DNA from: Candidatus Bathyarchaeota archaeon
Lineage (GTDB): Archaea > Thermoproteota > Bathyarchaeia > Bathyarchaeales > Bathycorpusculaceae
Length of the DNA: 64,000 bases
Assembly: GCA_963826715.1 (NCBI GenBank)
Contig: CAWGYA010000008.1
Location: forward strand, 896,001-960,000
Reading direction: 5' to 3'
A model generated the notes under the pieces. It was not told the DNA's origin and ran no database searches. It saw only the letters and a program-made list of their open reading frames with translations. A program made the position numbers and the translations under genes. Of the stretch, positions 19,832 through 38,367 are shown one piece after another (within the stretch, counting starts at the first letter, position 1; each line of letters starts with the position of its first letter).

Positions 19832-21027
19832 ATGGCGCACAAGGTCTGCTTTATCTCACCTGAATACTGGCCGCTCACAGGAGGAACAGGTTCCTACGTC
19901 TATTACCTGTCTAATGAATTGCTTAAAAATGGCTATAAACTCTACGTCGTTACAGGCTCAAACCATGCTCAAGACGTCAAAGTCAATCCAAAGTTAGATG
20001 TGTCTTTTCTGAAAATACCCAAGATGCCAATCGTTAAATCCTTCATGCTCGCTGCTAACAGCAGCCGTAAACTAGGTAGCGTTCGAGATACAGCCAACGT
20101 CGACATCACACATCCACAGCTTCCTCTGACACCGAATTTTGCTGTGCCGACAAATTTTGGAAAAGCCCTCGTCTGTACAGTCCATTCCACATGGAAGGGC
20201 GAAGCCGAAGCTATTCGAGGTGAACCCTACAGCCGCCTAAACGCCAACGAAAAGTTCCTTGTGAGTTTTAACCGGTTTTTGCGGTTCTTCGAGGAAGGCA
20301 TGCTTAAAAGGGCGAGAAAAATCATCGCTGTTAGCCACTTCACCAAGTGGGAACTTACAAACTACTACAAAATTCCCCAGAACAAAATACAGGTTATCCA
20401 TAATGGGGTTGACGTTAACAAGTTTAAGCCTGCAGCGGACAAACGCAGGGCCAAGATGGAACTGGGCTTAAACCCCGACGATTTAGCTATAGTGTCCGTG
20501 GGGCGGCTCTATGCACGTAAAGGGCTCTTTACCCTAATCGAATCCATGCCCGCAGTCATCAAACGTTTTCCAACCGCTAAATTCATCATCAGCGGCAAAG
20601 GACAAAACGATGAAATGCACAAACTCAACGCCCACGCTGAGCGCTTAGGAGTCAGAGGCAACATAGTCTTCACAGGCTACACTCCCGACCGAGAACTGCC
20701 AAAACTCTACCAAGCCGCAGACGTCTTCGCTTTTAGCACCTTCTATGAGCATCACCCGTTTGCTGTGTTGGAAGCGTTGGCAACGGGCTTGCCTGTGGTC
20801 ACCACCACTGTGGGAGGTATTCCCGAAACCATCGACAGCGGCAAAAACGGTTTTCTGTGAACCTTTCAATTCCAAGCAGTTTAGCGAAAAAATCTTGTAC
20901 CTGCTAGAAACATCCAGCGGGGGCAGCGGAAATGGGTGCCAAAGCGCGGAAGACGGTTGTGGAGCAACTGGATTGGCGTATAGTCGTCAAAGACGCCATG
21001 AAAGTCTATGATGACGCGCTAAGATAA
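19832..21027 (+). CDS. GT4 glycosyltransferase, frameshifts at ~20856 and ~20912
   Basis: IHNGVD, VGRL..RKG, LEALATGLPVV; C-terminus VEQLDWRIVVKDAMKVYDDALR* ends at 21027. Confidence 0.85.
20970..21027 (+). repeat. Direct repeat copy 1 (3' end of GT4 gene)
   Basis: ggattggcgtatagtcgtcaaaga identical (24 bp) to 21758..21781, similarity continues to the stop. Confidence 0.9.
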
Positions 21028-21105
21028 TCGCCGTTTTTAGGCTCTTCATCAGCAGATTCTCATCAATCTTTAAAAAGGTAACAACCCAACTTTATCTCGA
21101 TACAA

Positions 21106-21738: not shown

Positions 21739-21757
21739 GCTTCGTGGAGACGCAGTC

Positions 21758-21815
21758 GGATTGGCGTATAGTCGTCAAAGAAGCAATGAAAGTCTACGAC
21801 CAAGCCCTCAGCTAA
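21758..21815 (+). repeat. Direct repeat copy 2: orphan diverged GT4 3' end
   Basis: Encodes DWRIVVKEAMKVYDQALS*, homologous to the GT4 C-terminus. Confidence 0.9.
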
Positions 21816-21946
21816 AGTTGTCTGAGGTTCAGCATTATTTAAAAGGTAAATGATTAACTATATTTCGACTATCTGTGTTGCGACCTGTACATTTTTTTTA
21901 AGCTTAATAGGAAAATAGGCTTTAGAGTGTTTCAAGGGAATTCAAT

Positions 21947-22522: not shown

Positions 22523-22639
22523 AATGCGTAGCTTAGTTTTTTTGCGTTTTGTACCTTTTCAGCAGCTCGTCGATTGAGTCAGTGTCTTTGCTTTCATTTA
22601 GAACCTGATATCCAACAACCCAGTTCTTGAGTGATTCTT

Positions 22640-23207
22640 CTATTTTTGTGAAATGTCTCGTCTAATGACCTCTGGAGCTTTGCCATCAGTAACCTCTAAA
22701 GCCTTGAACATATAAGCAAATCCCGTTGATAGAGGAGCATCTGGATGCATCTTAACCCATTTCTCAACGGTATCAGTCGTTGCAAGCAATTCATCTATGA
22801 GGTCTTCCTTTCCCAGGGATTGTTTGCTTGCATTGTCAAGTTTGCCAAGAATAAACGTGCTAAAAGTTAAAGAATCGTAATTTAGCGCCCTCTCATAGGG
22901 GTCTTCAATATTATCCTGCAATCTTGACTATTTTGTCGAGGGACTCTCTCTGAAATTGTTATCCTCAGTCTTGGTAATTGATGTCGTATTTGTTAAAGAC
23001 AGGTCTTAGGTCTCTGAGGTTTCTTTGAGGAATCTCAATTACACAATTCGCCAATTTTCTATGCGGTATTTTAGATAGGATGCCATCGTTGTTTCTACCG
23101 TATAGTTCATTGTGAAATTTGGTCTTATCCTTTGTATTCTTGGAAGAAACTTGATATCTGATTATCACGTTAGCTTTAGTTAGTTTTTCGCAGCCTTCTA
23201 CTTGCAT
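22640..23207 (-). pseudogene. Hypothetical gene(s): N-terminal Cas2/VapD-like small domain plus helical C-terminal part, probably frameshifted
   Basis: ORFs 22965..23207 (IIRYQVS..KTKFHNELYG..G) and 22640..22921 closely spaced on the same strand. Confidence 0.4.
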
Positions 23208-23409
23208 CTTCTTCTACCTGCTTTGCAAGTATAATACTTCTATTAGTTATTATATAATCATTGTGTGGTAATCACAGAAGCAAGGCGCTGTTTTCTCAAT
23301 TACAGTACTTAAGTGGCGATCCCTTAGCCCAGACGCGGTCAAATTTGACAGAAGCATGGTAATAATGTTTAAGGGCATTCTTCCTGCTATGATGTCTGGC
23401 TGGTTGTGT

Positions 23410-25416
23410 TTGAGGGGTAAGTTATGGTCAATTGAGCAGGAGCGGCAACTGCGAGACCTCGTCGCAAAGGGAGTTGGTATTGCCGAGATTTCAGAGTTAT
23501 GGGTAAGACGCGTGTTTCTGTGCGGTCCAAGATGTATCATTTAGGTTTGTCTGTAGTTGATGCAGCAGCACCTTCCCCATCCATTGCTGTATCAGTTGCA
23601 TCAATTGCATCAGTTGCATCAACTCCAAAACCCATAATCGATCAGCCACCCATTGGTCAAGCCCCTTCTCAGGTTCCAATTATAGACCATCAACCCGCTG
23701 CTAGCTCTGCCTCTTTGCCGAGTGAGGATGACGCCTTTACGACTCAACTCAAGGAGAATGCACCTTTGCCTACCATTGAGGAGCAGCTTCATGTTTTGAA
23801 CGCTGCGATAGTAGAATTGCGCAGGCCAGGTATCAGCCGGGCTGAAGTTGCAAGGTACTCAAAGATTATTGATGGTGTAAAAGTTTACAATGACCTGTTC
23901 GCTAAATTTGTCGATTACCGAGGGCTCGAAACTAAAGTCTTGGAGTTAGAAAAACGGCTTGCAGAGAATAAAATCCATAGTGGGCAGAGTCGTCGCAGAT
24001 TCAATGCCAGAGATATCCAATCGCACTGGCAAAACCTGGATGAAGCGTACAGAATTCGCCAGCAAGCCACCCACGCAAAGGTTGAAGCAGTTAAGGGTGA
24101 CACGGCAGCGTTCTTCCAGCAAATCTGCCGTCTAAAACCCTTTGGCTACCAGTTGGAACTCCCAAAACTGTACCGTGAAAACCAGTTTTTGGCGGTTAGG
24201 TGGCCACGGCAGACAGGCAAGAGCACATCGATTGGAGCGTTGCTGCTTCAGGACGCCTATGAGAATGGCGACTTAAGCGTTGCATTCATTGGTCCGAGCT
24301 TTCGCCAAACCAAGCTTAACCTGCGACGTGTGGCGGGATTTTGCCGCAACCTGCCCCTGGGAACCTGCCAAGTGCAGAAAACCAGAATCAGCTTTGAAAA
24401 CGGCTCATTCATCGAAGCCTTCCCCAACAACCCCGACACCACCCGAGGCAACACATTCCACCGCGTCTGGTGGGATGAAGTCAACTTCACCCAAGGCGAC
24501 GACGACCTATACGACGCCCTCCTATACACCCTGGGAACCACAAACGGCAAACTCGTAGCCAGCAGCACCCCATTCAACACCGACTCACTGTTTTGGAGAA
24601 TGTGCAACCACAAAAGATTCGCAAACTATGCAAAACACCACTTTTCCTACGAGGCCGCACTTGAACCAAACGGTCCACTGAATGCGCAGATGATTGAGCG
24701 GATCAAGGAACAGTTTGGGGATGATCCAAGCCGTTGGCGTCGAGAGATGGAGGCTGAGTGGGCTGAAGATGAAGATGTGTGGCTTGCTCAGAGTTTGATT
24801 GTTTCGTGTATTGGCACCAAAAAGAACTGCGGACAAGACCTCGAAGAATACGACACAGAGAAAAGTTGCAGCGGAGAGTTTTTCTTGGGTAGACATCGGT
24901 CAAGTCAGAGACTACACATCACTAAGCATCGTAGAAATGGTGGACGACACGATTTATTTGAGGCATCAAAAACTGTTTCCGCATCCAACCACCCACGCAC
25001 ATGTCTTAGGCTACATCAAGCGTCTGCAGGATCTGTGGGGCGGCTTCCAGAAAATCCGCGTCGACTTCACCCGAGAAGGCCCCAGCCTCATCAAAGACAT
25101 GGAAAACGCAGGCATAGACAACGCTGAAGGCGTCAACTTCAGTGTCCCCCGAAAAAGCGAAATGGCAAGCCTACTAAAACAACGCATGCAAAACCAACAA
25201 CTCCGCTTTCCCCTGCTCACATGGGAGAAACCCTACCGAAGCGACATATGCAGTGAACTCAACGTTGAAAAATACCAACTGCGCAAAGACGGGAACATAG
25301 GATACAGCCACCCCAACGGCACCCACGACGACGTCTTCTGGAGCATAGCATTAGCCGTATACGCAACAACCGACATGGCGCCTGAACCTTTCTTAACAGT
25401 AGTTCCTCGAAGCTAA
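23410..25416 (+). CDS. Large terminase (ATPase + RNase H-like nuclease) with N-terminal HTH/coiled-coil region; frameshifts at ~23495 and ~24890
   Basis: Walker A WPRQTGKST, PSFRQ, RG..FHRVWWDE Walker B, SSTP, RREMEAEW, (G)VDIGQVRD, HDDVFWSIALA; upstream WSIEQERQL...GKTRVSVRSKMYHLGL HTH. Confidence 0.88.
23588..23623 (+). repeat. 9-bp tandem repeat (~4 copies) encoding SVA-SIA-SVA
   Basis: gtatcagtt gcatcaatt gcatcagtt gcatcaac. Confidence 0.7.
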
Positions 25417-25443
25417 AATCAAGTCAGGGCTAATTAATTGAGT

Positions 25444-25467
25444 TGGCGGGGCCGCTGGGATTTGGAC
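25444..25467 (-). other. tRNA 3'-end fragment (att-like scar)
   Basis: Reverse complement GTCCAAATCCCAGCGGCCCCGCCA = T-loop, T-stem, acceptor strand, CCA; no 5' half nearby. Confidence 0.75.
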
Positions 25468-25508
25468 ATGGCTCACAATGGAGAAATCACCCGCACTTCC
25501 CTTTCTTT
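25458..25508. repeat. Imperfect ~50-bp direct repeat copy 1
   Basis: ggatttgRac-N11-tggagaNNtcaYccgcaYttcccttt shared with 29452..29502. Confidence 0.75.
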
Positions 25509-26183
25509 TTATAATTCTAAGGGGATTATTGATAGCAGGTCAGCAAACTCATGTATTATAAAGTCAGGTTGGCTAACGAGCAACTTTGCTTGATAGTCTC
25601 TTGCATGCACGTACGCGGTCTTTCCGTATTTGCACTGTATTGTTCTTATGCCTAATTGCTTTGCGGGAACAATATCTTGCTCTAAATCATCACCGATTGA
25701 GAAGCAATTTGTAGGATCACCAATTTCCTTTAGGGCTAACTGCAAGTGTTTTCCGCATGCTTTGGGTGCTTTAACCATATCTGAAGTTATAATGCAATCA
25801 AAGAATTCAGACATTTTTAGATACTCAATCCTCGGGGTGATTACTTCTTTTACCGCATTGGTCAACAAAAAAATCCCAAAACCGTTTCTGTGGTATTTAG
25901 ATAAGACATTTTTTACCCCCGGAATTAGTTTTATTTGGTTAATTGACAAATCATGAGCTATTTTCCAGTCTATTCCAAATAGCTTTCCATGATATGGATA
26001 ATCATACCAAATCCATGAATCTTCATTCGTTCTTAAAAAGTCAAGATATTTTTCTTGAGCTTCTTTAAAGGGAATCCTTTCTTTTTCAGCAATCTCATTT
26101 TCAATTTTGTTGCACAATGTTTTGTCAAGTGAATACTCATCAGCTAACGTGCCAGTCCAGTCAAAAAGCAAATACTTCTTCAA
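25509..26183 (-). CDS. HAD-superfamily hydrolase
   Basis: FDWTGTL motif I, LTN, K, IGDDLEQDI motif IV. Confidence 0.88.
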   Translation of the reverse strand: MKKYLLFDWTGTLADEYSLDKTLCNKIENEIAEKERIPFKEAQEKYLDFLRTNEDSWIWYDYPYHGKLFGIDWKIAHDLSINQIKLIPGVKNVLSKYHRNGFGIFLLTNAVKEVITPRIEYLKMSEFFDCIITSDMVKAPKACGKHLQLALKEIGDPTNCFSIGDDLEQDIVPAKQLGIRTIQCKYGKTAYVHARDYQAKLLVSQPDFIIHEFADLLSIIPLEL

Positions 26184-26187
26184 GGCT

Positions 26188-28557
26188 TCACTTTCCCTCT
26201 TCTGCCTTTATTTCAATTGAGTCTAGGAATTTCTCAATTGCATCGCAAATACTCTCGATGTTGATGTCTTGATTAGCAGTTGCGACTTGTTTAATTTTGC
26301 CTAAGTACCTCTTGAGATTGGGGACATCATTTTTCTCCGGAGAAATTGTCCTGAAATAACTCCAAATCTTTAGAGAGATTATCGAACTAGGATTTTTCTT
26401 GAGGAGATACTGCTCGTCAATATCCTTTTTGAGAACCTGTTTTATTTCAGACTCGCCGTAGTATTGTTTTTGTATTTTATCATTCGTTGCAGCAGCTTCC
26501 CCTTTGTCCTTTAAGTCCTCGATAAGAAAAAGCACATATTCCTCACAGTATTTCCTGTCGTTTATTGTAGATAAAGCCAAACTGGCAGACCTAAAATAGA
26601 CTGGATTGTATCTCTGCCTATTAGTTACAATATCAATTAATACCTTAGTTAATTCTTCCGATTGGATTCGGAGTTTGCCTATATAATAAAGAACTTCCTG
26701 TAACCTTTCATCGTATTTTAGGAGGTCTTTTTTCTGTTCCTCAATAACATTCTTGAAAGCTACGGCAGCTCTTAAATTAAACTTACCGGGATTTAGCTTC
26801 AAGGTAAAACGGAGTCTTTCCGTTTCCTTGATAAAATGCTGGCTCACTTCGTGAGTTTGAAATACATTCCAAATTTCGGAACAGACACTCTGAGTTTTGT
26901 CGGGATTAAAAACGCAAGAGGCTAAGCTGAAGGCTATAAGATACTCCATAAATGACTTGTGTGAGAAAGTGAATGACCTATCAGTGGCTCGCTTAAGGAT
27001 GGCAAACACGCTAGAATTAAGCATTATATCGGCAACTTTACTTGGTTTCAAAACGATAAATCTCTTTACAGCACAGATTTGTTCTATTTCATTGATAGTT
27101 GTTTGCGCTGCAGCTTTAGATTCATAGTTTTTTTCAGCAATTGCGAGCAACAATTTGAAGCTTTCCTCTTCAAACAATTGCTTATCAAGGTTAAAGACGC
27201 CTGCCTTGCGGCTATGGTCATCGCTGATTTTCCATGTAATGAACTTATAGTATATTTCCGAAAGATTGCCTGATAGACCATCAAGAATTCTAATTTCCGT
27301 CTTGTTGCTTATTTCTAGGTCACAAAGCATTTTAAGAAATAGAGGCCTATTTGGCAGATCTAGAAACTTTTGGGATTCAACCTTTTCAAAAAAATCATTT
27401 ATTTCTTTAGTCTTAAGTGGCTGTTTGGCTAGCAATCCTTCCTTGTATTTTATCCATTGTAGGCTCTTCCAATCTCTTAATTCCACGTAGGTGTGATTCT
27501 TTAGGTCTCCTCCAATCGCTTGAAAGGCATCAAAAAAAGGGTTAAACTCCCTTCTACAAGTGAGTAGAACTACAAACTTGTTTTTGAAAAGGAAATTGAT
27601 AAAATGTTTCAGGACAACAGAGTTGCAGTCAGATTCGTCAATACCATCCAGAATTATTGCCAGTTTTCTATACTGTAGCATTCTCGCTATATTCTTGGTA
27701 AACAGGTCGTCATCTAATGACAACAATGCATTGCTATATCGAGATTTATGTTGAATAAGACATTGTATGATTTCTGCGACAACTTTCTGCGCGAGGTGTT
27801 CACCCTCGAATGTCTCGATTTTTTCATTAGTCAACTCGATAAAAATAGGGTAAATTGCTTCAGGAACCCATTTCTTGAAATATATTTTGCTGATTGTTGT
27901 CTTTCCCATGCCGTAAAAACCTGAACAAATAACGGGTCCATGTAGCACCGCCTTTTTTAGAAATCGCAGGCATCCACCGCTTGAGCAAGAAACATGTATG
28001 TGGCGCCTGCCATGGAAGTAATCAAAATTGTCAACAAAATCCTCTTCGCTAATATCATATGGCCACATTCCACTGATTGTCGATGATTTTTCCTTAAAGT
28101 AATCTTGAAGTTCTGGGTAGGGGTAGTATACATCATACAAGAATCGTGCCGTCTGTGAGCAGCTTTTGATAGTAACTTCCCCGCTTTCATAGTTACCAAA
28201 CAAGTTTGCCATTTTTGCCGTTGGATGGATGTTTGTCAAGAAAACAATGTGTGAACCTGTTAGCTTGTTATCTTTGGCAGTTTTCCACATATTGGGGATA
28301 TCTTCAAGTTTTTTTCTCATATACTCGATATTGCCGCCTGGGCTTTCACCGCCATAAATCTGGAAAAGAATTTCTTTGGATGCAAAATCAATACCCCCAT
28401 CCCTTCCATCCTCTGGCGCCCACAATGTAGGTCCGAATTTCCTAGCTAGAAATGACACTACGAATTTCTCAAAGGGAATGCCGTTTTTCTGGGTGAGGTC
28501 AGACTCAATACGAGCGAGTAACTGCTTGTTTAACTGAGGCGTCTTTTCAACATCCAT
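26188..28557 (-). CDS. NACHT/STAND NTPase with N-terminal restriction-endonuclease-like domain and helical C-terminus
   Basis: FEKFV..DGRDGGIDF..FQIY; Walker A GFYGMGKTT; Walker B IILDGIDE; LTCR; PLFL; FSHKSFMEYL. Confidence 0.85.
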   Translation of the reverse strand: MDVEKTPQLNKQLLARIESDLTQKNGIPFEKFVVSFLARKFGPTLWAPEDGRDGGIDFASKEILFQIYGGESPGGNIEYMRKKLEDIPNMWKTAKDNKLTGSHIVFLTNIHPTAKMANLFGNYESGEVTIKSCSQTARFLYDVYYPYPELQDYFKEKSSTISGMWPYDISEEDFVDNFDYFHGRRHIHVSCSSGGCLRFLKKAVLHGPVICSGFYGMGKTTISKIYFKKWVPEAIYPIFIELTNEKIETFEGEHLAQKVVAEIIQCLIQHKSRYSNALLSLDDDLFTKNIARMLQYRKLAIILDGIDESDCNSVVLKHFINFLFKNKFVVLLTCRREFNPFFDAFQAIGGDLKNHTYVELRDWKSLQWIKYKEGLLAKQPLKTKEINDFFEKVESQKFLDLPNRPLFLKMLCDLEISNKTEIRILDGLSGNLSEIYYKFITWKISDDHSRKAGVFNLDKQLFEEESFKLLLAIAEKNYESKAAAQTTINEIEQICAVKRFIVLKPSKVADIMLNSSVFAILKRATDRSFTFSHKSFMEYLIAFSLASCVFNPDKTQSVCSEIWNVFQTHEVSQHFIKETERLRFTLKLNPGKFNLRAAVAFKNVIEEQKKDLLKYDERLQEVLYYIGKLRIQSEELTKVLIDIVTNRQRYNPVYFRSASLALSTINDRKYCEEYVLFLIEDLKDKGEAAATNDKIQKQYYGESEIKQVLKKDIDEQYLLKKNPSSIISLKIWSYFRTISPEKNDVPNLKRYLGKIKQVATANQDINIESICDAIEKFLDSIEIKAEEGK

Positions 28558-28809
28558 TTAGTGCTTAATCGCAATTAGGGATTTTGCAATTAGATATTGT
28601 GAGCGACAAAAAAGAACATTTCTTTTTTTTCTCGTTGTGTATCATGAGCTCGGTCCTTGTTTATTCTTATTTTTGTCCATTTCAAATGGTTATAGCGGCT
28701 TTCCGAACTAAAATTTTGAGAGTTAACTGTAAAAAAATTTTAAATAAGCGCTAAATATAGTGCTTCAAGTAAGCGCTCAGACACTAAGCGCTGGAGGTGG
28801 AAAGACGAA

Positions 28810-29019
28810 ATGAGTAACGATGAACTAAGAATTGCGGTTTGCTTGGTTTTAGCAGCAGTGTTAGTTTTCCCCAGTTTAGCTTTGATGAACTCTAATCCAT
28901 TGTTTATTCTATCTCTTGGCGTTGGTATTCTTGTTATCATTTATGCATTTAGTCCCGATTTAGCCTCAGAAATTGTTGACGGAATTAAAGAAATAGTAAC
29001 TGCACCTTTCAAAAAGTGA
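28810..29019 (+). CDS. Small two-TM membrane protein
   Basis: ATG start, GGAGG upstream, two hydrophobic helices. Confidence 0.55.
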   Translation: MSNDELRIAVCLVLAAVLVFPSLALMNSNPLFILSLGVGILVIIYAFSPDLASEIVDGIKEIVTAPFKK

Positions 29020-29136
29020 TTTAATTGAATTATTGATTAGTTTCGTGACTTTGATTATGGAGCAATAGCTCTTTTTTCCATTTAAGGTGGGCGGTGCTTG
29101 TACTATATTTTCGCAAATTGTTATTTAGGTTCTTTG

Positions 29137-29379
29137 TCAGAGTTCTTCAAGAGTAATTTCGCTTATTACTTCCGAATACTCTTTTCCGTCAATTCTATTT
29201 CTTTGAAGGAGCTTACGAAAGAAATCATCTATCTCTTTGGCCTTAACCCACTCATTCTCCAAAAATTCGTCTAATGTGCCAGTGAAAGTAAGCCCATTTA
29301 TCGAAACAACTGTATAGGTTCCGTCGCCATTTTGTATTATCTTTTTCCACTGACTTATGACAGGTTCCCCAATATCCAG
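29137..29379 (-). CDS. Hypothetical 80-aa protein (non-canonical CTG start; absent from ORF track)
   Basis: Open frame LDIGEPVISQWKKIIQNGDGTYTVV...EITLEEL*. Confidence 0.35.
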   Translation of the reverse strand: MDIGEPVISQWKKIIQNGDGTYTVVSINGLTFTGTLDEFLENEWVKAKEIDDFFRKLLQRNRIDGKEYSEVISEITLEEL

Positions 29380-29451
29380 GATATATCAAGGTCTATTCAA
29401 AAATTGCCCTAACTGGATTAAACAAACCCTAGCTTAATTTTGGATAGCGAT

Positions 29452-29502
29452 GGATTTGAACTCATGCCAAAGTGGAGATGTCATCCGCATTTCCCTTTTT
29501 TT
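29452..29502. repeat. Imperfect ~50-bp direct repeat copy 2, beginning with reverse T-loop ggatttgaac
   Basis: ggatttgaactcatgccaaagtggagatgtcatccgcatttcccttttt aligns without gaps to 25458..25508. Confidence 0.75.
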
Positions 29503-29546
29503 GAGCTTAGTTTAAAGTTACTTATTTCAATGAATCAACTTGAAAA

Positions 29547-30029
29547 TTAAGAATGGGGTTTTCTTTCTCTTTGTCTTTTAATGCCGATATTTAGTGGTGG
29601 TTTATCCTGATACTCCATTACATAATACTGAATACACTTTGTCTCACGATTGTCAGCTTCTTTTGCACTGCTTAATTCAGTCCAATATACTCTTATGTTC
29701 TTGGCGTTCAGTTTAATTGTATCGGGAAAGTGGTTATCGCGGAAATACCTTCGAAAATTCCAGCCCTCTGAGTGACTATTTCGGTATAAACTCTCATCAA
29801 ATACGTCCCTATGAAATTGCCTTATTCTTCTGTTAAGATTTACCGCTTTGCCGATGCATAATATTCCATCGCTATCTTCTTTTCCATTCAACCTTGGAAA
29901 ACACTTTGGTTTGCCATTTTCTATGTAAATCAGCACGTAGACACCTGAACTTCTTGGAATTTTCTTCAATGATTCCAAGTCTGCGATTTCAGCAGTTTCA
30001 TAATTTATGAGTATTTCATCAAATATCAT
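29547..30029 (-). CDS. GIY-YIG family nuclease
   Basis: PRSSGVY...ILCIGKAVNLNRRI, conserved E, PPLN. Confidence 0.75.
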   Translation of the reverse strand: MIFDEILINYETAEIADLESLKKIPRSSGVYVLIYIENGKPKCFPRLNGKEDSDGILCIGKAVNLNRRIRQFHRDVFDESLYRNSHSEGWNFRRYFRDNHFPDTIKLNAKNIRVYWTELSSAKEADNRETKCIQYYVMEYQDKPPLNIGIKRQRERKPHS

Positions 30030-30050
30030 TGTTTAACACCCTCAAATCCG

Positions 30051-30593
30051 TTAGGTGCAAATGGCGATTCCTTTTGTTAACTCTTCAAGTTCCGATAGTT
30101 CATCGTTTGTAAGTAATCTATAAGTTGTTATCCTACTGTTCTTTAGAGGCAATAGATTGTTTATTGAAGTTTCCAATTGCTTCCACTGTACAATTTTCTT
30201 GGTTTTTCCCTTGGCAAGTTTTGATGTATCTAAAATCTGAATGAAGGTGACGTTTTCATCCATTTCAATCGGTTCATTATTTTTTACGTAATGGATGAAG
30301 TACTTAGCCAATGCTGATGTGAGAAATTTTCCACAAACCTGCGTAGGCTTAACGTTTGACTCTTCAATTTCGACAATTAGCCTAATCTTATCATGTTTAA
30401 GTATCATCATGTCAACGTTACAAAATTCGTTTTCTTTGCTTTTTACAGGGTTGTAAAATAGTGGAATGTGTTGTTTTCCGTCGCAAGCTGGGTCTCGAAG
30501 AAGGGTAAGGTTTGGGTATTTTGAAACAAATTCTTGGAAAGCTCTTCCGATTTTCTTGTGGATAATATTTGCTTCCTTCGGCATAACGGTCAT
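30051..30593 (-). CDS. Hypothetical protein, possible PD-(D/E)xK nuclease
   Basis: NVDMMIL...IVEIEES resembles the D..ExE core; 2 bp after MBL gene. Confidence 0.55.
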   Translation of the reverse strand: MTVMPKEANIIHKKIGRAFQEFVSKYPNLTLLRDPACDGKQHIPLFYNPVKSKENEFCNVDMMILKHDKIRLIVEIEESNVKPTQVCGKFLTSALAKYFIHYVKNNEPIEMDENVTFIQILDTSKLAKGKTKKIVQWKQLETSINNLLPLKNSRITTYRLLTNDELSELEELTKGIAICT

Positions 30594-30595
30594 GA

Positions 30596-31954
30596 CTAAT
30601 TCTCCAATACATACTCTTTTTCATGTTCAATCGTTTGCATGTTGCTGCAAAGAGTTTTGAATAGCTTCTGATTTTCTGTATGGACCGGAAAAGCTCGCTT
30701 GGGCTTAATTTCGTTTACCATTTCCACCAATTGTTCTTTACTCATGTGTCCCGAAGCGTGAACTTGATGGAAGTTCATTTTGAAGTGATTTAGCCAGTTG
30801 TGCATGACTTGGTCTTCGATGTCTTCTTCGCTAAAAGGTTCACTCATGCTATGGATGAATTCGCTTCCAGCTTTCGGCTTTATGTCGATTAATTCGGTGA
30901 ACTGGAAAAAGTCGAGATCCATTATTATTTTGCCTTGATTCTTGCGAACATACTTACAATCAACCATCTTATCCATGAATTTGCGTTCCCAAGGGAAATA
31001 GTCTTTCTCGCTGTATGTTCCTGACTTCTTTTTCTTATAATACACACGAATACAGTCATCTTTGAGCGGGTCTGGAACATCTAAATGCTCGTCACTGAGC
31101 AACTTGGTTAGCAGATAGGCAGTCTTGGGCGTTATGACCATTTTTCTATTATTATTTTTAGCCACTTCGTAGAAACTCTTGAACCTGTCAATGTCTCGGC
31201 TGGCATGCATGGTGAAGACTGCCTTGTCGGTTGCCTTTACGATTTTGTCGCTTATCTGTGCGACTTGCGGCTCAGAGTAGTTCTGTCGTGTTTCTCTTTC
31301 AGCCATTCTGGTTCCCTCGCAGATTAGTGCCTTAGGCTCCGCTTCTTTGGCTTTTTCGATAAAGTTTTCAGTTAGGTCTTTTCTGGGTCCGTGACGCCGT
31401 AAGTCGCCTGTATAGACGATTGTGCCTTCGGAGGCGTGAATAATAAAGCCATATGCAGCTGGAATTGAATGGTCAACCGCAATCGGCTCGACGGTCAAAT
31501 TGCCAATTTTGATTTTATGCCCTGTTCTAAACTTATTGCAAATATGTTCGCCGTAATCTGCAAAGTAACCTGTCTCCTCCATCGACTCCATAAACAGTTT
31601 CGCCCCAACGCCCATACAGACCGGAATACTTGGATCCAAAAACTCAATATGAGTTACGTGGTCAAAATGCGCATGTGAAAGAAAAACACAATCGATTTCA
31701 GGATCAGTATAAGGCAAGTTTGTTGAAGCAAGCATTTCCTTTGAATACAGACCGCTCCGCTTTGGAAGAAGACCAAACTCGAAGTAATCGCCTAAACCAT
31801 TAAGGCCTCTTGGTTGAAGCCAGTTAGTGAAAAACTCTGAGCCAAAAGTGAATGACTGCCCAAAGTCAAGAAAAATTTTGGTACCCTTGTCTTCCAAAAG
31901 TATCTTGTTGCCGCCAATCTCGTTGACGCCGCCATAGAATGTTAACTTAACGAT
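30596..31954 (-). CDS. MBL-fold beta-CASP hydrolase (RNase J-like); homologous N-terminus begins at ATC 31954
   Basis: VKLTFYGGVNEIGGNKILLE; SHAHFDH; VDHSIP; YTGD; HASGH; PVHTE. Confidence 0.88.
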   Translation of the reverse strand: MVKLTFYGGVNEIGGNKILLEDKGTKIFLDFGQSFTFGSEFFTNWLQPRGLNGLGDYFEFGLLPKRSGLYSKEMLASTNLPYTDPEIDCVFLSHAHFDHVTHIEFLDPSIPVCMGVGAKLFMESMEETGYFADYGEHICNKFRTGHKIKIGNLTVEPIAVDHSIPAAYGFIIHASEGTIVYTGDLRRHGPRKDLTENFIEKAKEAEPKALICEGTRMAERETRQNYSEPQVAQISDKIVKATDKAVFTMHASRDIDRFKSFYEVAKNNNRKMVITPKTAYLLTKLLSDEHLDVPDPLKDDCIRVYYKKKKSGTYSEKDYFPWERKFMDKMVDCKYVRKNQGKIIMDLDFFQFTELIDIKPKAGSEFIHSMSEPFSEEDIEDQVMHNWLNHFKMNFHQVHASGHMSKEQLVEMVNEIKPKRAFPVHTENQKLFKTLCSNMQTIEHEKEYVLEN

Positions 31955-32404
31955 GATTAACGCTGCTTAGACATAAGTCAGCGATATCAGCTTATAGAAT
32001 CTTCTAAACTTAATCAAAATAAGGTCAAAATGGTTTGGGGTAAAGATTTCTTGCCTCAAATGAGTTTGACAGGTCTTGTTTAAACCCCGGTCCCAATTTG
32101 AACACTGATAGACTTGGTTCCAATCATCAGAATATAATGAAGTTTGTAAGTTTACCCTTTTTTAGTTTTTATATCTCGCAAAATTGACACTTTCAAATAA
32201 ATTATAGACAAAGGCAGAGTATGAATTAACAATAACAATAAATGAATCAATTCTCCAATCGAAATCAAGGTTGAAATTATCTTAAAGACCAATTAACTGA
32301 TATTAATTTTCGTTAGTGTCTGATTTAATTAATAACCGCTAAGTCTTTATAATAAGTTAGATAATTAACACCACGTATTGAGGTACGGTTCGGGTTTGCT
32401 GGAG

Positions 32405-33062
32405 ATGGCAGAGAAAAAAGTTCTGAAACATGGTATACTCATAGCTATCGAAGGCATAGACGGCGCTGGAAAAACTACCCAATCCCATATGCTAACAGAA
32501 AAACTTAATGAAGAGGGGTATTCTGCTATTTTTTCTCCATGAACCGACCAATGGTCAATGGGGACAAAAGATTCAAAGAATTAGCAAAGAATGAGCGACA
32601 CTGAATACCTGCAGAGGAAGAATTAGATCTCTTCTACAAAGACCGCATTGAAGACGTCGAAAAAAATATAAACCCTAACATTAAGGAGAAAAAAAATTAT
32701 AGTAATAGATATAGGTACTATTATTCAAACATAACATATCAAGGCATAAGAGGGGTAAACCCAGAATAAGTTGAAAGGATAAATGAAAAAATAGCTCCAA
32801 AAACCGCACCTTGTTTTAATTCTTGACATTCCTCCTCAAGAATCATCAAGACGGATCGTTGCTTCTAGAAAGGACGGGCCAAACCATTTTGAGCGAACCG
32901 ACTATTTAGAAAAAGTTCGTAACTTGTTACTGTACAGCATTTTCGTGACAGAGATAATGTCAAAATCATAAATGGTGATTCGGCAACCATTCTGCACAAG
33001 AAGTTTTTGATTCTTTGTGGTTCTTGGTAAAACCAATAGTGCATGAGGCTGAGGAAACTTAG
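32405..33062 (+). pseudogene. tmk: Thymidylate kinase pseudogene
   Basis: IAIEGIDGAGKTTQ P-loop, HEPTNG, RYYYS, PHLVLILD fragments in different frames with several stops. Confidence 0.85.
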
Positions 33063-33327
33063 CGGTGGGCAAGGAAGAACTTGAAAGGCAAATCGCAAAA
33101 GCAGCAGAATCTCAAAGTTCAGGTTCATTGGAGATTAAAAGATTGAAAGAAATTATATGCTTAAATTCCTTTGCACCAAAGGTAAAGATAAATGCGAACC
33201 AGTTTATTGCACCTTTCAAATAACAAATACATGCCCTTTTCTTAGACAAATGGCGTTTTCTCGCAAAGAAATATTCTTTTCATGGATAATTTCAAATGTC
33301 AATAGGTCAATTTCACGGTAACATTTC

Positions 33328-34150
33328 TTAACTCGCTTCAGAGAATTTTATTCCGTACTCCCAAATTAGATTGGCCATATACTTTCCAGATTATATTAGA
33401 TTAATTTTGTTTAATGAACCTATTTTCTCTATAGTTATGTAACCATTTTTGTATCGAGTTTATATAGAATGGACTTGTTTAGATTAATTCAGTTCTTTTG
33501 CTGTATTCTTCGCCTCTCCTCTTTTGATCCAACTGTTTTTTCATCCTGGAAAAGCTCAATTTTTTTGGAAATAAGCAGACGTCAAAATTTACATCAGTAT
33601 TCATTGGTTTGCCTTTAAGAGGAAATGTTTGTTAAGACAATCTTTCCTGGTTCATAAGGGTAGTTTGATTTGAAAGTTCTCAAGCAACATTCCGTCAGGT
33701 TCAACGCAAATACTTATGCCATGTTGTTGTCTTTCTTCGTCATTTCGCGAATATCGATTTGCCCCGACATAGTAGACTTTTTGCGTTATGTGCCATTGCT
33801 GCGAGAGTGGCTACGACTGAAGCCAATCGTTCACCTGCAGACATGTTAACATATGCCAAGACTTATTTGGATTTTTCTTTCAATACCTAGACTAGAAAGG
33901 CTTATTCATTAGCTGTTTAATATCAAATAGGTTGACTTCTTGGACAATGACTTCTATTTTCTTCATTGTCAATTTCTTTTGACTTCGTTTAAGCAACGGA
34001 CTTGCTCCATATTCTCTGCTTTGAAATTTAGGTTCGGAGGTGGCAATCTACTAAGTAAACACGATTAGCGGAGAATTTTTCAAACATTATGACAGCTCTG
34101 TCAATTTCAAAACCCAATAGAATTATATGTACATGCTCTTCAAATTTCAA
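33328..34150 (-). pseudogene. DUF6293 (CARF-like + wHTH) regulator pseudogene
   Basis: HVHIILLGFEIDRA, AYVNMSAGERLASVVATLAAMAH, VYYV, SGKYMA; multiple stops and frameshifts. Confidence 0.75.
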
Positions 34151-34260
34151 AACTTTCATCAACGTTTAAACATCTTAACCATGTTTAATGATAATTAAAC
34201 TTATTTAGTTAAACAACATTTTCTATCTTCAACCTTATAAAGACTTTGGAAGTTAGAAAA

Positions 34261-34684
34261 ATGTGCCCGAAAAACATCGAGGTTGAATTGACCGACCGCG
34301 CAGTAAATCGTGTGAGGGAATGTGGTTGCGACCCACTTGAAATAATTCACTACCTTTATTCTGGTGAGATTGCAAGTTTCTGAGAACTTTCAAGGGTTTG
34401 AAATTTTAGTACCATTCAAAGGAAGATTAACTGGCACATTTGATAAAGGCATATTTGTTGCCGAATCCTTTTTGTCGCTTATCCATCGTGGCAAGTATTA
34501 CAGTTATCATAGTGAATTTTCGAGAAACCAGTTTTTTGTAATAGTCTCTCTTGTTAGAAGAAGTGGATTAAGAAGAATTGTGGTTTCTTGTACTCGTAAA
34601 GTAGAAATATCATTGTCTGAGTTCGGTTTGACGGAATCTGGGAAACCTTCCATTATCCCAATAAGTAGGTACACCGGGGAGTGA
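34261..34684 (+). pseudogene. Hypothetical protein, frameshifted (ATG 34261 to ORF 34364..34684)
   Basis: MCPKNIEVELTDRAVNRVREC.. stops ~34383; overlapping frame continues. Confidence 0.4.
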
Positions 34685-35067
34685 CAATTTTGAACTTAGG
34701 TATCATTTTCACAAAACGCAACTTCTTATTGATTGGTCTCTTAATCACGATAATAAGGGCTGCTGCCGCCTATATTAATTGGCCTGGTTTTTTATCTAAA
34801 ATTAATCCAGACGAAAAGATAGATTTGGCTAATGTCACTTATCCACAAGCCGCATATAGAAGCCAGAATTTGCCAATCTCGATTAACATTATGAATAATG
34901 GCAATTTCGGAAAAGATGTTATGGTCGAAGTTCTTTCATCAAATAGTGATAGAATTATCAATAATACTGGTATTTCTAGTGGGGGGAGCGCAAATCTTTT
35001 GGTTAATTTACCAGTTAAGAGTTGCGGTAACCAGTCTTTCAAAGTCAATGTCTATTGGAAGGCGTAG
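34681..35067 (+). CDS. Membrane-anchored protein with Ig/CARDB-like segment, probably truncated
   Basis: N-terminal TM; ISINIMNNGN and beta-rich pattern. Confidence 0.45.
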   Translation: MTILNLGIIFTKRNFLLIGLLITIIRAAAAYINWPGFLSKINPDEKIDLANVTYPQAAYRSQNLPISINIMNNGNFGKDVMVEVLSSNSDRIINNTGISSGGSANLLVNLPVKSCGNQSFKVNVYWKA

Positions 35068-35073
35068 GAGATA

Positions 35074-36012
35074 TTGACCGATTTGGAAAGTGATCATTTG
35101 CAAACCGCAACTCTGGAAGGAAACCGTTTTTTCATACCTATGGTGCCCCCTCAAATAAAACCTGAAACACTTTTGGCTGTATCGCTTCATACATCTTGGA
35201 TTGGAATTAACCTGTTCCAACTTAAACATTCAAGCTTTTATGAGAAAGCGAAAAGTAAAGGTGTCAGAGACGCCTTTGGAATCAATGATAAAATAAAAAT
35301 ATTCTTGACAACAATTAATGACGACAACTACCTTGTAAATTACTTCAATAAATCTAGTTGGTTTGAAGAATTAAAATCAGACTTGAATGGTTTTAGTGCG
35401 GACATGGTTATGGGACCTGATTGGTTTAGTTACAGAGAGGACTCACCAGAACTCAGAAATCGAAACATAAAAAAAGCAATTGATCTGAACTTAATGTTTA
35501 CATATCAAGAGAATATAATACCAACAATTCGAGGAAATTACTCCCAAGAAATTAAGCGTTTTATAAAACCTTTCAAAGAAATAGGAAAAAATTTGTTTGT
35601 TTTTACTGGCAGAGAATATCTAATTAATCTTGGTGATAGGAAGAGATCAGAATTTGAACTTCTTTCTCTCACATCCAATATCGTTAGAAATGAAAAAGTA
35701 AAATTAATTGTAACTGGCTGTAGCAGTCCAAGGCAACAAGAAAATTTACCTGATGTTTTTGGGTTTTCAGGTCTGGGATGGTTAATCAACGCTAAGAGAA
35801 GAATGTTAATTTCAGGCAAGACTTACCGATGGCTTTCATCACCTATATTTTCTTGCGCAGATCCGGATTGCTGCAATTCAATGAACAAATCTGAATTGGC
35901 GCAATCAAAAAATGACTCGATTCGTGCAATTCATAATTTGAAAGCAATTATTGCTAGACTGAACACGGCAAAACATATGCAACAATCTTGTTTGGGGGAT
36001 TTTGATGGGTAA
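35074..36012 (+). CDS. tRNA-guanine transglycosylase (TGT)/DpdA-like TIM-barrel protein
   Basis: MGPDW, IIPTIRG, LIVTG, FSGLGW..A, C-terminal CADPDCC...AIHNL resembling the TGT Zn site. Confidence 0.5.
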   Translation: MTDLESDHLQTATLEGNRFFIPMVPPQIKPETLLAVSLHTSWIGINLFQLKHSSFYEKAKSKGVRDAFGINDKIKIFLTTINDDNYLVNYFNKSSWFEELKSDLNGFSADMVMGPDWFSYREDSPELRNRNIKKAIDLNLMFTYQENIIPTIRGNYSQEIKRFIKPFKEIGKNLFVFTGREYLINLGDRKRSEFELLSLTSNIVRNEKVKLIVTGCSSPRQQENLPDVFGFSGLGWLINAKRRMLISGKTYRWLSSPIFSCADPDCCNSMNKSELAQSKNDSIRAIHNLKAIIARLNTAKHMQQSCLGDFDG

Positions 36013-36532
36013 CAAAAGCCGCTCAAAACATTATAATCATAAATCTGGTTATGGTGCTCAAGGAACATTTGCCCAAGTGCAATTTCCTCACATGATGCCT
36101 AGATTAAGTCGAACCGATGTTGACTTATTGCTCCCAGTTTTAAAAGAGGTTGGTAAAGTTATTTGCCCACCTGCAGCCATTCCAATAGAAATTTTATACC
36201 AGCTTTATACACATTCAGATGTGATAACAGAAGTAGGTTCTGCAATTAATAGAGGCGATTACAAGGGGGCAGTTATTGCTGCAGGATACCAAATAGTAAA
36301 AGATGTGGTTGGCACAACATTAAGTTCTAGTGCAAATCAATCAGTCGAAAAAGTTGCTTCAAGCGCAGGTGAGATAACTGGCAATGCATTTAAGGATGAA
36401 CAATCGAAAGAGCTTGCGAAAAAAGTTACTGAAGCCTCCGTAAAAGGAGGTGTAGAAGGGATTCAAGACAAAATAATAGATAAAACAATTGATTCCATAA
36501 AGGGATCGATAGAAGGTGAAAGAAGTGAGTAA
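36002..36532 (+). CDS. Hypothetical protein
   Basis: 176-aa ORF overlapping neighbours in operon fashion. Confidence 0.6.
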   Translation: MMGNKSRSKHYNHKSGYGAQGTFAQVQFPHMMPRLSRTDVDLLLPVLKEVGKVICPPAAIPIEILYQLYTHSDVITEVGSAINRGDYKGAVIAAGYQIVKDVVGTTLSSSANQSVEKVASSAGEITGNAFKDEQSKELAKKVTEASVKGGVEGIQDKIIDKTIDSIKGSIEGERSE

Positions 36533-36812
36533 TCAAGCTAAGATTAAACTTATCAAGGATACTGTGATTAAGTCGATTTTATCACAAACTTCCGATAACC
36601 TTGCGAAAAACAGTGTAAGCGAGCAGAAAACTCAGGCTTTATTACGAATAACTGAACTGAAACTTGAGAGAATATTAGACAATTTTGACCAAGCTGACAT
36701 TCTACCTAAAAAGTTCTTATCTCAAGAAGAATTTGAAAGTCATTTACTTACTCTAATTGACTTATCCAAAGAAAGGTTAGTTGAAGACGTAAACCTCGAT
36801 AAGAAACATTAG
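36516..36812 (+). CDS. Hypothetical helical protein
   Basis: 98-aa ORF overlapping the previous gene. Confidence 0.55.
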   Translation: MKEVSNQAKIKLIKDTVIKSILSQTSDNLAKNSVSEQKTQALLRITELKLERILDNFDQADILPKKFLSQEEFESHLLTLIDLSKERLVEDVNLDKKH

Positions 36813-37075
36813 CGGATATTGTTCTTGAGATTTGGAGAAAAGATGTTGAAAAAATTAATAGTTTCTTTTAAATAATCTTTGAACGTCAATTGAAAATATT
36901 GAATCATCAAAAAAGTTGCGCTTTTTTTAGTTATCATATTTTCTATGGCCTTCAGAACATAAGTAAAAGGAGTAGTGAGGTTTGTTTAAAAATTTGTTTT
37001 ACTTGTGCAAACAGTTTAAGAAAAGGACTTTCGGTATTGCTTATTTTTACACCAGACGTGTTGTAGTCGTTTTGG

Positions 37076-37186
37076 TATTTCGCCAGAGTTGCACACTCAG
37101 AACAAGAAACTTGCCAATTAATAGAAGCCGGCTTTGAATTCGTATGCGATTTTGGTGTTAACAAGGTTTTCAGAAAACGCAAGTGA
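37076..37186 (+). pseudogene. C-terminal remnant of an archaeal tyrosine integrase
   Basis: YFARVAHSEQETCQLIEAGFEFVCDFGVNKVFRKRK* resembles the C-terminus I recall for Bathyarchaeia integrases; tRNA scar 47 bp downstream. Confidence 0.65.
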
Positions 37187-37233
37187 AATTTGGTGTAGAA
37201 AGTAAACCAAAAAAAATGGAAGGGGATTATTCG

Positions 37234-37257
37234 TAGCGGGCGGGAAGGGATTTGAAC
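37234..37257 (-). other. tRNA 3'-end fragment (att-like scar)
   Basis: Reverse complement GTTCAAATCCCTTCCCGCCCGCTA; no 5' half nearby. Confidence 0.75.
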
Positions 37258-37402
37258 AAAGGACAGCGTGCCCTCAGGCATCTGTCCTAATCCATCATTG
37301 GTAAATGAAGGATAGCGCTTTTCAAAGGATTGGAGATTATTCTGTATGTGGTTGATTGAGGCGTTATTCCGGAGCCAATTGGACCTAAAATATATTCGTT
37401 AG

Positions 37403-38367
37403 TTACCCAATTTCCACAGTTGTACCTCGATAAGCCATTGTGACCTTTTGAAACAGTTTTACAATGTCTAATGAGCAGAAAAGCGCTTTTGTTAGGTACT
37501 CGTGCTGGTAAATCATCATCTGCGCCTTCACGGGCAAATCGATCTGTGGTGGCTCAAAGAATCGGGCAACTGAATCTACTGGTTCCCCTTCAAGTTGGAT
37601 ATCTTCTTCGCGCAGCCCCGTCTTTTTAGCAATATAGGAAAGGTATGTGCCCTTCCAATCAAGCATCATAACTTCGCAGAGATTATGTCTATAGCTAAGG
37701 CATCGTTGCCCGTTAGAATAAGCCCCATGTTTACTGGTTTGCCCTTGGTTGGTCCGTTGCCCTCTATTCCCGTGCGCGCATCCATAATGGTTAGATTGGG
37801 CTTAAAAAGTGTGTAGAGGAGATAGAACACCTCGGGCAGATATGGGTGCAGATAGATTCGGCGGTTGCTGGGGATACAACCGAATAGGTTCTTAATCGCG
37901 CCGCTGTAAGCCATAAACTCATGCGTTTTCATCAATGGTAAATCAACGACAGCGTCAGCGTCAAGGATGGTTTTGGGCAGAAACAGACGCTTCACCGATG
38001 TGCCATTGTGGAATTTGACTTCGACGATTTTGTCCTCGCTGAGGTTAATGGCAGTTCCACCCGCTGCCTCTACCGCTTCCTTCATGCCTGTCTTGTCAAA
38101 TGCATCCCAGCAAGGATAGTTGATGCCGTTGGATTCGCCCACTACCACTTCGCTGTTGCCATCGCGGAGCAAACCGACGAGTTCCCTCATCAGAGCTGGG
38201 CTAGTGACAACACCGGGCAAGTATTTAGGGTGGCTGAGGTTGGGTTTTATGTAGATACATTTTTTGCCTCGGAGTCCTGAATTAGCGACGGCTTCTTTGA
38301 GGATGCTGCTTATGTCCTTTGATGAACGGAAGATTTTTACGGTTTTCTGCTCAGGTATCATTTCCAT
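37403..38367 (-). CDS. DUF362 family protein, split near 37668
   Basis: IKPN, VVTSP, LPLMKTH, GAIKNLFG, H, DA..GIEGNGP, DALAID; 37403..37669 supplies the C-terminus. Confidence 0.85.

Follow-up and report, generated by a model that had tools for sequence, protein, structure and literature searches.

Organization of the locus

A 64-kb window from the genome of a Candidatus Bathyarchaeota archaeon of the family Bathycorpusculaceae (contig CAWGYA010000008.1, positions 896,001 to 960,000 of the forward strand) carries a genomic island in which short sites resembling tRNA 3' ends, cut at the T-loop, lie between groups of genes. We show here that three of four such sites, S1, S2 and S5, are real recombination junctions, and we argue that the region is probably a fossil stack of integrative mobile elements whose attachment (att) sites persist as scars. 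Host-type genes (radical-SAM, cobalamin and glycosyltransferase genes) extend until 21.0 kb and appear again from 37.4 kb, and the island is set apart by a G+C content of 0.35-0.37 across 26-37 kb versus 0.44-0.51 on either side. The T-loop core motif ATTTGRAC occurs five times in the window, always on the + strand (25460, 29454, 32096, 35652 and 37250). A sequence-only reading of the same DNA had listed all of these cores except the one at 35652 as an array of same-orientation tRNA scars in intergenic gaps, and had proposed an integron-like system that stacks defense cassettes captured from different tRNA loci. The four positions are exact and the four cores do lie in intergenic gaps; as an array of scars, the series holds for S1, S2 and S5 but not for the site at 32096 (S3), which has none of the element arm described below. 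The fifth match, at 35652, is a chance occurrence. The 8-mer as such is not enriched (five copies observed versus 8.22 expected, and five or more in 91 of 100 shuffles), hence the signal lies in the context of the cores and not in the motif. No tRNA was found in the window by ARAGORN or, at gathering score, by Rfam. The features are listed in Table 1.

Table 1. Features of the island and its borders, with positions in the window and nucleotide identity to the related genome G011; assignments to att sites are predictions.
Feature	Position	Strand	Identity to G011	Remarks
GT4 glycosyltransferase gene, 3' end	20941..21029	+		left edge of inserted DNA; G011 homology reaches 21029
Terminase module: small GcrA/HTH-like open reading frame (ORF) and large terminase subunit	23310..25416	+	93.5% (up to 25467, the last S1 core base)	Pfam Terminase_6N, Terminase_6C; PHROG terminase
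S1, target side of putative attR: displaced pseudo-tRNA-Pro(GGG) 3' end, T-loop to acceptor 3' strand	25425..25467	-		
Family-A arm of putative attR, element side of S1	25468..25511	-	noise (from the base after 25467)	held-out model E 9.4e-8
Cargo 1: HAD hydrolase and 789-aa STAND/NACHT-like NTPase	25509..28557	-		Pfam, protein atlas neighbors
S2, internal attR-type site: family-A arm, T-loop core and 13 nt	29441..29503	-		held-out model E 2.6e-8
Cargo 2: two ORFs of unknown family and RNase J-like beta-CASP/MBL hydrolase	29547..31897	-		
S3	32096..32116	-		no arm, no match with either arm model
Cargo 3: decayed stretch, then five ORFs, one TGT-like (35074-36012)	32369..36812	+		
Fifth ATTTGAAC match	35652..35659	+		inside TGT-like ORF; no arm, no tRNA-like end
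Integrase remnant: last 36 codons (36-39) and stop	37080..37187	+	67.9%	aligns with C-terminus of 365-438-aa integrases
S5, element side of putative attL: tRNA-Arg(CCU)-type 3' end and T-loop, from incoming attP	37229..37257	-	92.0% (end and core)	
X: pseudo-tRNA-Pro(GGG) 5' two-thirds (37258-37345) and flank	37258..37402	-	91.6%	aligns with G090/G111; absent from empty sites
Host gene	37403..37669		81.7%	
Host DUF362 gene			76.1%	

Empty, unbroken and occupied sites in related genomes

The window's own genome, G000, was compared with 119 other genomes of the genus (120 in all), and about 20 kb beside the radical-SAM gene were compared in 10 genus genomes. In six of these ten loci (G023, G001, G012, G022, G008 and G010) the counterparts of the glycosyltransferase gene and of the 37403-37669 gene are convergent neighbors, practically without a spacer and without a tRNA in between. 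Thus, the whole of 21030-37402 is inserted DNA. G014 carries at the same spot a small insert with a nucleotidyltransferase gene (NTP_transf_2, 6.9e-20; L020, 16948-17271), and this unrelated insert marks the junction as a hot spot for unrelated insertions. The G015 contig ends too early to judge, and over 17 kb of other DNA is present in G002. In G011 the insert measures only 2.6 kb; past the terminase module it has counterparts of S1 and S5 separated by just 206 bp.

The 2.2-kb terminase module stands directly after the glycosyltransferase stop codon in G115, G086, G111, G011 and G090 with 92-95% identity, and it also occurs in G002 and G125, where the fetched locus falls short of the glycosyltransferase gene (module coordinates 23310-25467; L015, 15030-17194). 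Since the flanking host genes are only 76-82% identical, these values suggest that the module may have spread recently between species. Its large terminase gene (23.5-25.4 kb) is frameshifted in the window and forms one 486-aa ORF in G011; contigs of three public runs have 2 extra bases after 24889 compared with the window.

Homology to the window ends exactly after GGGATTTGAAC (25467) in all eight relatives that carry the S1 core. This single breakpoint has at least five different right-hand partners. Past the core, G011, G002 and G086 continue into a degenerate arm and an integrase tail, G115 and G125 into a second arm family that is the partner of tRNA-Pro(GGG) fragments on contig C7 of G000, and G104 into another sequence. 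G090 and G111 run without interruption into the 5' part of a tRNA-like sequence. The condition set earlier, that module boundaries in relatives should coincide with the cores, is borne out exactly at S1, and the proposed role of the T-loop as crossover core is supported.

The continuous tRNA-like sequence beside the terminase genes of G090 and G111 has the T-arm CTGGG TTCAAAT CCCAG. The G090 copy has the anticodon loop CTGGGGC; part of a D-arm is like that of the G000 tRNA-Pro(GGG), and the acceptor stem is unpaired (judged partly by eye). ARAGORN does not call it, and the G111 copy reaches 25.7 bits in Rfam compared with a gathering score of 29. Aligned to this site, X corresponds to the 5' part and S1 to the 3' part of the pseudo-tRNA, and the two meet at the T-loop. 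From this unbroken target, whose halves are S1 and X, we infer that S1 and S5 would be the attR and attL of a single 11.8-kb insertion at the T-loop. X, too, is inserted DNA. The statement that no intact tRNA is present is right, but it misses a degenerate tRNA-Pro-like 5' two-thirds directly to the right of S5.

The same pseudo-tRNA 5' part is joined to a Pro end in G090 and G111, to an Arg(CCU) end in G000 and G011 and to an Ala-like end in G002, where a further stretch of about 19 kb is inserted in the S5-type core with the Ala-like end next to X. Another occupant, for the most part deleted, lies between the cores of S1 and S5 in G011, G002 and G086. The varied occupants and the insertion in G002 show that the pseudo-tRNA was hit repeatedly. 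Capture of the cassettes from different tRNA loci is therefore not supported: a single pseudo-tRNA-Pro was the target, and the differing tRNA ends arrived with the attP sites of incoming elements. Public reads were available as contigs only; in the best run, the fraction of sampled words present was 0.24. A junction of 25464 with 37395 appears in one contig of run X3, whose shorter side measures 34 nt, and one contig of run X1 turns at 25464 into an arm like that of family B. These contigs, which cannot reveal rare forms, showed no circular junction.

The attachment arm and the integrase family

On the - strand, S1 reads ...GTCCAAATCCCAGCGGCCCCGCCA, a tRNA 3' end from the T-loop on, with 2 mismatches in 22 nt to either tRNA-Pro(GGG) or tRNA-Arg(GCG/CCG) of G000; its core bears a T-to-C change. 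Over 22 nt, S5 (GTTCAAATCCCTTCCCGCCCGC) has two mismatches to the tRNA at C8:1160462, and its G011 homologue is the exact 3' end of the G000 tRNA-Arg(CCU). The two sites are thus different tRNA 3' ends cut at the T-loop, as had been claimed, and both can be matched to tRNAs of the genome; the end at S2 cannot.

S1 and S2 share an arm of 51 nt, 37 of which are identical, in agreement with the common arm of about 50 bp noted before. A sequence model of this family-A arm and core was built from 10 sites elsewhere in the genome with S1 and S2 held out. In an unfiltered scan of the entire window it recovered S2 and S1 (Table 1), the next-best match having an E-value of 0.14. S5 matches this model through its 11-nt core alone (E 2.5). 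A search for extra genome copies of the last 22 nt of each tRNA returned fragments of tRNA-Phe (three), Leu (two), Arg-CCU (one) and Cys (one). The sequence before each of them is built as at S1 and S2: an A-rich tract leads into CGGGTGAnnTCnCC, and G TTCRAAT CC comes after a further 12 nt or so. Seven of 12 aligned family-A sites carry the 3' end of G000 tRNA-Phe, Leu, Arg(CCU) or Cys. The full layout is seen at two loci. At tRNA-Leu, the tRNA is followed by a full 438-aa integrase at C8:455053-456369, a 22-kb element, an arm with Leu fragment, a 1.7-kb remnant and a second arm with Leu fragment. At tRNA-Arg(CCU) (C8:1160571-1162831), the tRNA, an integrase tail, a family-A arm and a 25-nt repeat of the tRNA end lie within 2.26 kb. 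In view of these layouts, the family-A arm is the ordinary element-side arm of attR sites. Across the genus, the arm model has 606 matches at E<=1e-5 in 99 of the 120 genomes, and the expectation that the motif recurs elsewhere is confirmed.

Other identities of the arm were considered and rejected. An RNA gene, split tRNA, tRNA intron or C/D-box RNA is not supported by any Rfam match at gathering score or by a consensus fold: relaxing Rfam to E-values up to 5 gave merely four chance-level matches, RNAalifold predicted 0 pairs for arm and core over 12 sites (one strand, RNA parameters), and pairings spotted by eye are inconsistent among copies. The differences between S1 and S2 include compensating indels and are not codon-like (by eye), which speaks against a coding arm. 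IS200/IS605-type ends are not in line with the copies being direct repeats instead of terminal structures, and no transposase lies near. Partial matches that have the arm (model positions of about 3-39) and lack the T-loop core occur at C2:37210, C8:606417, C8:475457, C2:536217, C5:150471 and others; the arm can be separated from the core. One idea is that the arm might hold the oligo-T terminator of the integrase gene on its other strand.

The integrase tail reported beside the last core is present and converges on S5, its stop (37187) lying 41 nt from the tRNA-like end (37229). The same layout of stop and tRNA end is found at C8:1160594/1160633, and 31 of 36 residues of the remnant match the integrase copy beside tRNA-Arg(CCU) at C8:1160633. 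No other integrase pieces were found in the window, and no integrase ORF lies in or beside 20-40 kb. Searched with tblastn, the 38-residue tail has 16 matches in the genome at E<=0.013, itself included, eight in ORFs of 312-438 aa and eight in ORFs shorter than 300 aa. The longest of the integrase ORFs start with a CxxC...CxxC zinc ribbon. One copy that was tested matches Phage_integrase (PF00589) at 2.7e-20; its nearest solved relative is the archaeal XerA (4a8e, 5.5e-17). All NCBIfam matches stay under their cut-offs (integron integrase, 72.8 bits with a cut-off of 265; archaeal XerA, 92.8 bits with a cut-off of 220). Integrase copies adjoin several tRNA genes (Leu, Pro, Cys, Phe and Arg-CCU), and each element of the family carries its own integrase beside its attP. 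In the full-text literature we found no description of the family-A arm or of this integrase family in Bathyarchaeia-type genomes, papers on Bathyarchaeia viruses and proviruses being outside the scope of that search.

The reference tRNA-Arg(CCU) gene itself (C8:1160462-1160594; L002, 5463-5595) is labeled by ARAGORN as tRNA-Val(cac) with an intron, while its anticodon loop CUCCUAA is that of Arg-CCU. In its D-arm region the gene is longer by about 50 nt, an insertion that represents a non-canonical intron mishandled by standard callers.

Cargo, S3 and other features

The cargo units consist of 2-5 ORFs each; 34364-36812 is on the + strand and the remaining units are on the - strand. Cargo 1 has a G+C content of 0.37 and no DNA match beyond G000 among the matches listed for the 120 genomes. 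Its 789-aa STAND protein has weak Pfam matches (NB-ARC/NPHP3_N), and its NACHT/nSTAND neighbors in the protein atlas are a lead only. Relatives of the beta-CASP hydrolase gene of cargo 2 are found with 66-87% identity in other genomes of the genus. In PADLOC, one of 13 scanned proteins was matched, the TGT-like one (E 1.1e-8), and the other 12 were without match. A defensive role of the cargo, as implied by the term defense cassettes, is thus weakly supported, the evidence being one STAND/NACHT-like NTPase and one TGT-like PADLOC match. The beginning of cargo 3 (32369-32970) contains three out-of-frame thymidylate kinase-like fragments (a GIDGAGKTT P-loop and later segments; judged by eye from translations) that look like a pseudogene within the island.

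S3 was rejected as a family-A scar, neither arm model giving a match. G093 shares 31502-32116 with the window at 89% and diverges after 32116, 13 nt to the right of the core that had been listed there. At this breakpoint, G093 has a T-arm-like sequence (GGACTTGAACCCCCGACC) that forms the first codons of a 294-aa ORF (L053, 2108-2992) with a weak match to Phage_integr_3 (archaeal phage integrase; E 0.0016, under the cut-off). No relative of this ORF was found in G000. This layout is the one expected of an integrase of the SSV type (named after Sulfolobus spindle-shaped viruses) with the att site inside its own gene.

At the left edge of the inserted DNA, the final 57-90 nt of the glycosyltransferase gene are duplicated (20941-21029 and 21743-21815, 788 bp apart and 84% identical). 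Relatives have a single copy of this gene end, compared with two in the window. The repeat looks like the att duplication of another element that targets the 3' end of a protein gene.

Several of the 606 arm-model matches form same-strand clusters elsewhere. In G093, G046, G095 and G016 three strong sites lie within 2.5-5 kb each, and the genes of such clusters encode PQQ-type beta-propeller proteins, DDE transposases and an Mrr-like nuclease. Five loci were fetched from other genomes, and in the four just named no integrase was found (tblastn at E<1e-4; Pfam, 19 ORFs over the five loci). Family-A sites are often situated just downstream of large PQQ-type beta-propeller genes (L068, L069, L070 and L072, from G093, G046, G107 and G016, respectively). 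In G107 and G016 the family-A sites form pairs spaced by 95-170 nt, and the second member of a pair stops short of the core. A cluster on contig C5 of G000 (about 136200-155650; L073) has same-strand family-A sites at 136212, 148985, 151539 and 155571 and the arm-only match at 150471. The post-core sequences differ in this cluster and only the last site carries a tRNA end, that of tRNA-Cys. No integrase was detected in 20 kb of it (134000-153900), a range that stops short of the last site.

Discussion

The comparisons presented here make the following history of the locus likely. A small terminase module with a degenerate tRNA-Pro(GGG)-like sequence would already have been in place between the two convergent host genes. 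An element of the genus-wide family would then have recombined with the T-loop of this pseudo-tRNA. Members of this family encode a tyrosine integrase of their own that combines the Phage_integrase fold and a zinc ribbon at the N-terminus; its gene lies some 40-55 nt away from an attP that is laid out as arm, T-arm core and tRNA 3' end. The incoming element was apparently of the tRNA-Arg(CCU) kind, since the S5 end and the integrase tail both match the small element at the genuine tRNA-Arg(CCU). Its attP would have overlapped the target only by GGGTTCAAATCCC, about 13 nt, so that integration would have been non-cognate. With no more than this stretch in common between target and attP, the crossover probably took place within the 7-nt T-loop or beside it, and a functional tRNA could not be restored. 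The products would be an attL at S5, made of pseudo-tRNA 5' part, core, Arg-type 3' end and integrase, and an attR at S1, made of arm, core and the displaced Pro-type 3' end. S2 may be the attR of a second family-A member that became stacked by integration into the attL of the first. Afterwards, the integrases would have decayed and the cargo would have been trapped. The array is a fossil, as is evident from the T-to-C change in the S1 core, the two changes in S5, an integrase reduced to 36 codons and the frameshift in the terminase gene.

Several observations do not fit easily with this history. The 13 nt past the S2 core match no tRNA of G000 and have no counterpart at up to 2 mismatches in any of the 119 other genomes of the genus, and the integrase remnant that stacking predicts to the left of S2 was not seen in 28558-29430. 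The S5-type site of G002 is broken inside the core by a junction that does not belong to family A. The window holds no intact integrase, so that activity is not attributable to any of its genes. Furthermore, the four genomes with three family-A sites within 2.5-5 kb and no integrase detected in between make simple decay a less comfortable explanation. Finally, recombination of non-cognate partners by family-A integrases is a prediction from sequence comparison.

In a first alternative, family-A integrases would need the T-arm core alone, and short integrase-less units, each ending in arm and core, would be mobilized in trans, an accretion that would resemble cis-mobilizable elements stacked with integrative and conjugative elements (ICEs) or, loosely, integron cassettes. 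We regard such relaxed-specificity accretion as unlikely, yet there is evidence that points in its direction. The ends at S5 and S1 are non-cognate, at least three different ends are joined to the same pseudo-tRNA 5' part, and the arm is widespread in the genus (606 matches in 99 of 120 genomes). In four of five loci of other genomes, same-strand sites 0.8-5 kb apart have differing post-core sequences and no integrase was detected, G000 has a second cluster (C5:136-156 kb), and the upstream gene is usually directed toward the arm (a tally of about 14 inspected sites). On the other hand, the same integrase-less unit was not found in two contexts, sites with a cognate end act as plain attR of integrase-bearing elements, integrase decay is visible (eight of the 16 tail matches are in ORFs shorter than 300 aa), and the integrase search in the other arrays spanned just 9-14 kb each. 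The same-strand clusters may be decayed stacks like that of the window. It is doubtful that family-A integrases recognize little beyond the near-universal T-arm core, that tRNA-like scars and pseudo-tRNAs borne by mobile genetic elements serve as harmless landing pads, and that arrays of short units, often with no integrase, grow and turn over there genus-wide. If this were true, at least eight species would share the terminase-linked pseudo-tRNA-Pro module as a mobile landing pad, and cassettes would accrete via tRNA mimicry in a manner that works somewhat like an integron without being one.

In a second alternative, illegitimate or short-homology recombination between the two T-arms, over their 13-nt identity, would have formed the joints with no integrase involved. 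GGGTTCAAATCCC is indeed the sole sequence common to both partners, and no active integrase is present. We consider this route highly improbable, however, because the products are exactly reciprocal and start where the identity of attP and attB starts in the family, because at least five different partners in eight relatives break at this one target core, and because the integrase tail has the canonical place and orientation. The reciprocity of the products, the canonical position of the tail and the reuse of the same core by different partners argue that an integrase probably made the joints.

An integron-like platform, in which a resident tyrosine recombinase captures promoterless defense cassettes with T-loop cores acting as attC, is the least credible account and is largely refuted: four same-orientation cores in intergenic gaps, boundaries that match cores in relatives and a weak match of the family integrases to the integron-integrase model (72.8 bits, where 265 are required) speak for it, but there is no resident integrase gene and nothing attI-like, the only integrase sequence being an element-borne tail, arm and core have no conserved hairpin, the units comprise 2-5 genes with one unit on the opposite strand, S3 is outside the family, the integron-integrase score is far under its threshold, and the XerA model scores higher (92.8 bits, itself under its cut-off of 220). 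The sequence-only reading is thus not supported with respect to a recombinase that stacks cassettes at the array, since the elements of the family bring their own integrase, nor with respect to an integron-like mechanism, since the arm is that of ordinary attR sites and the site has neither an attI nor a folding attC.

The stacking of integrative elements, as favored here, is how genomic islands of archaea usually accumulate, and it would not represent a novel machinery of the integron kind; the window contains an ordinary decayed genomic island. What is uncommon is the non-cognate joint, a pseudo-tRNA target borne by a second mobile module and the rare clarity with which the states before and after insertion can be compared. 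The locus would provide a base-exact example of non-cognate integration in archaea, in which an Arg-type attP and a Pro-type tRNA mimic recombined over about 13 bases in common, with the unoccupied site preserved in sister species. In addition, the attachment-arm model marks element ends in 99 of 120 genus genomes and hence aids the delimitation of islands in uncultured archaea. Were relaxed T-arm specificity a general property, the accumulation of arrays with mixed tRNA ends at scars, and not at working tRNA genes, would be explained.

Relation to known systems

Integrons resemble the locus in that same-orientation recombination sites divide cargo units and in the tyrosine recombinase chemistry. 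In contrast to integrons, the window lacks a platform integrase and an attC that folds; its units comprise several genes, and each element comes with its own integrase. In streptococci, integrase-less att-flanked elements (cis-mobilizable elements, CIMEs) are stacked with integrase-bearing ICEs by site-specific recombination at att scars. These systems are bacterial and their att sites lie in the 3' ends of protein genes, whereas the window gives no sign of mobilization in trans. SSV-type ("suicidal") integrases likewise target archaeal tRNA genes and lead to gene capture. Their attP is inside the integrase ORF, while in the window the integrase stop is 41 nt outside the tRNA-like end; an ORF layout like that of the SSV type was seen in G093 only.

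In archaea, tandem integration, secondary att sites and capture of elements after integrase loss are described in the relevant passages of the review "Archaeal tyrosine recombinases" (PMC8371274). The tandem and captured elements of Sulfolobales, Thaumarchaeota and Methanococcales presented in these passages share with the window the stacking, the secondary sites and the trapping of cargo by integrase loss (PMC8371274). The same passages do not name the integrase family of the window (zinc ribbon and a ...GFE(Y/F)V...FRKRK C-terminal motif) or the arm, and the word Bathyarchaeota is absent from the review. 

A further parallel is found in the T-arm class of tRNA islands. In the sections of the Islander study that deal with site classes and tandems, an attP in the T-stem region with a displaced 3' fragment defines the largest class (1836 of 3919 islands), and 125 tandems are recorded (PMC4383910). 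The window differs from this class in that its target is a degenerate tRNA-like sequence on another insertion and not a working host tRNA, and in that the incoming 3' end stems from a different tRNA and none is regenerated, the putative attL combining the 5' part of a pseudo-tRNA-Pro with a 3' end of the Arg(CCU) type. As far as these sections describe the class, it agrees with the window in having a displaced 3' tRNA fragment at the far end, empty sites in relatives and tandems. Beside the other end, where the class has its integrase, the window has the C-terminal remnant of 36-39 codons. S1 is the target's 3' fragment displaced from the T-arm to the far end of the element, when compared with G090 and G111, and the same two genomes preserve the unoccupied site with the breakpoint at the core.

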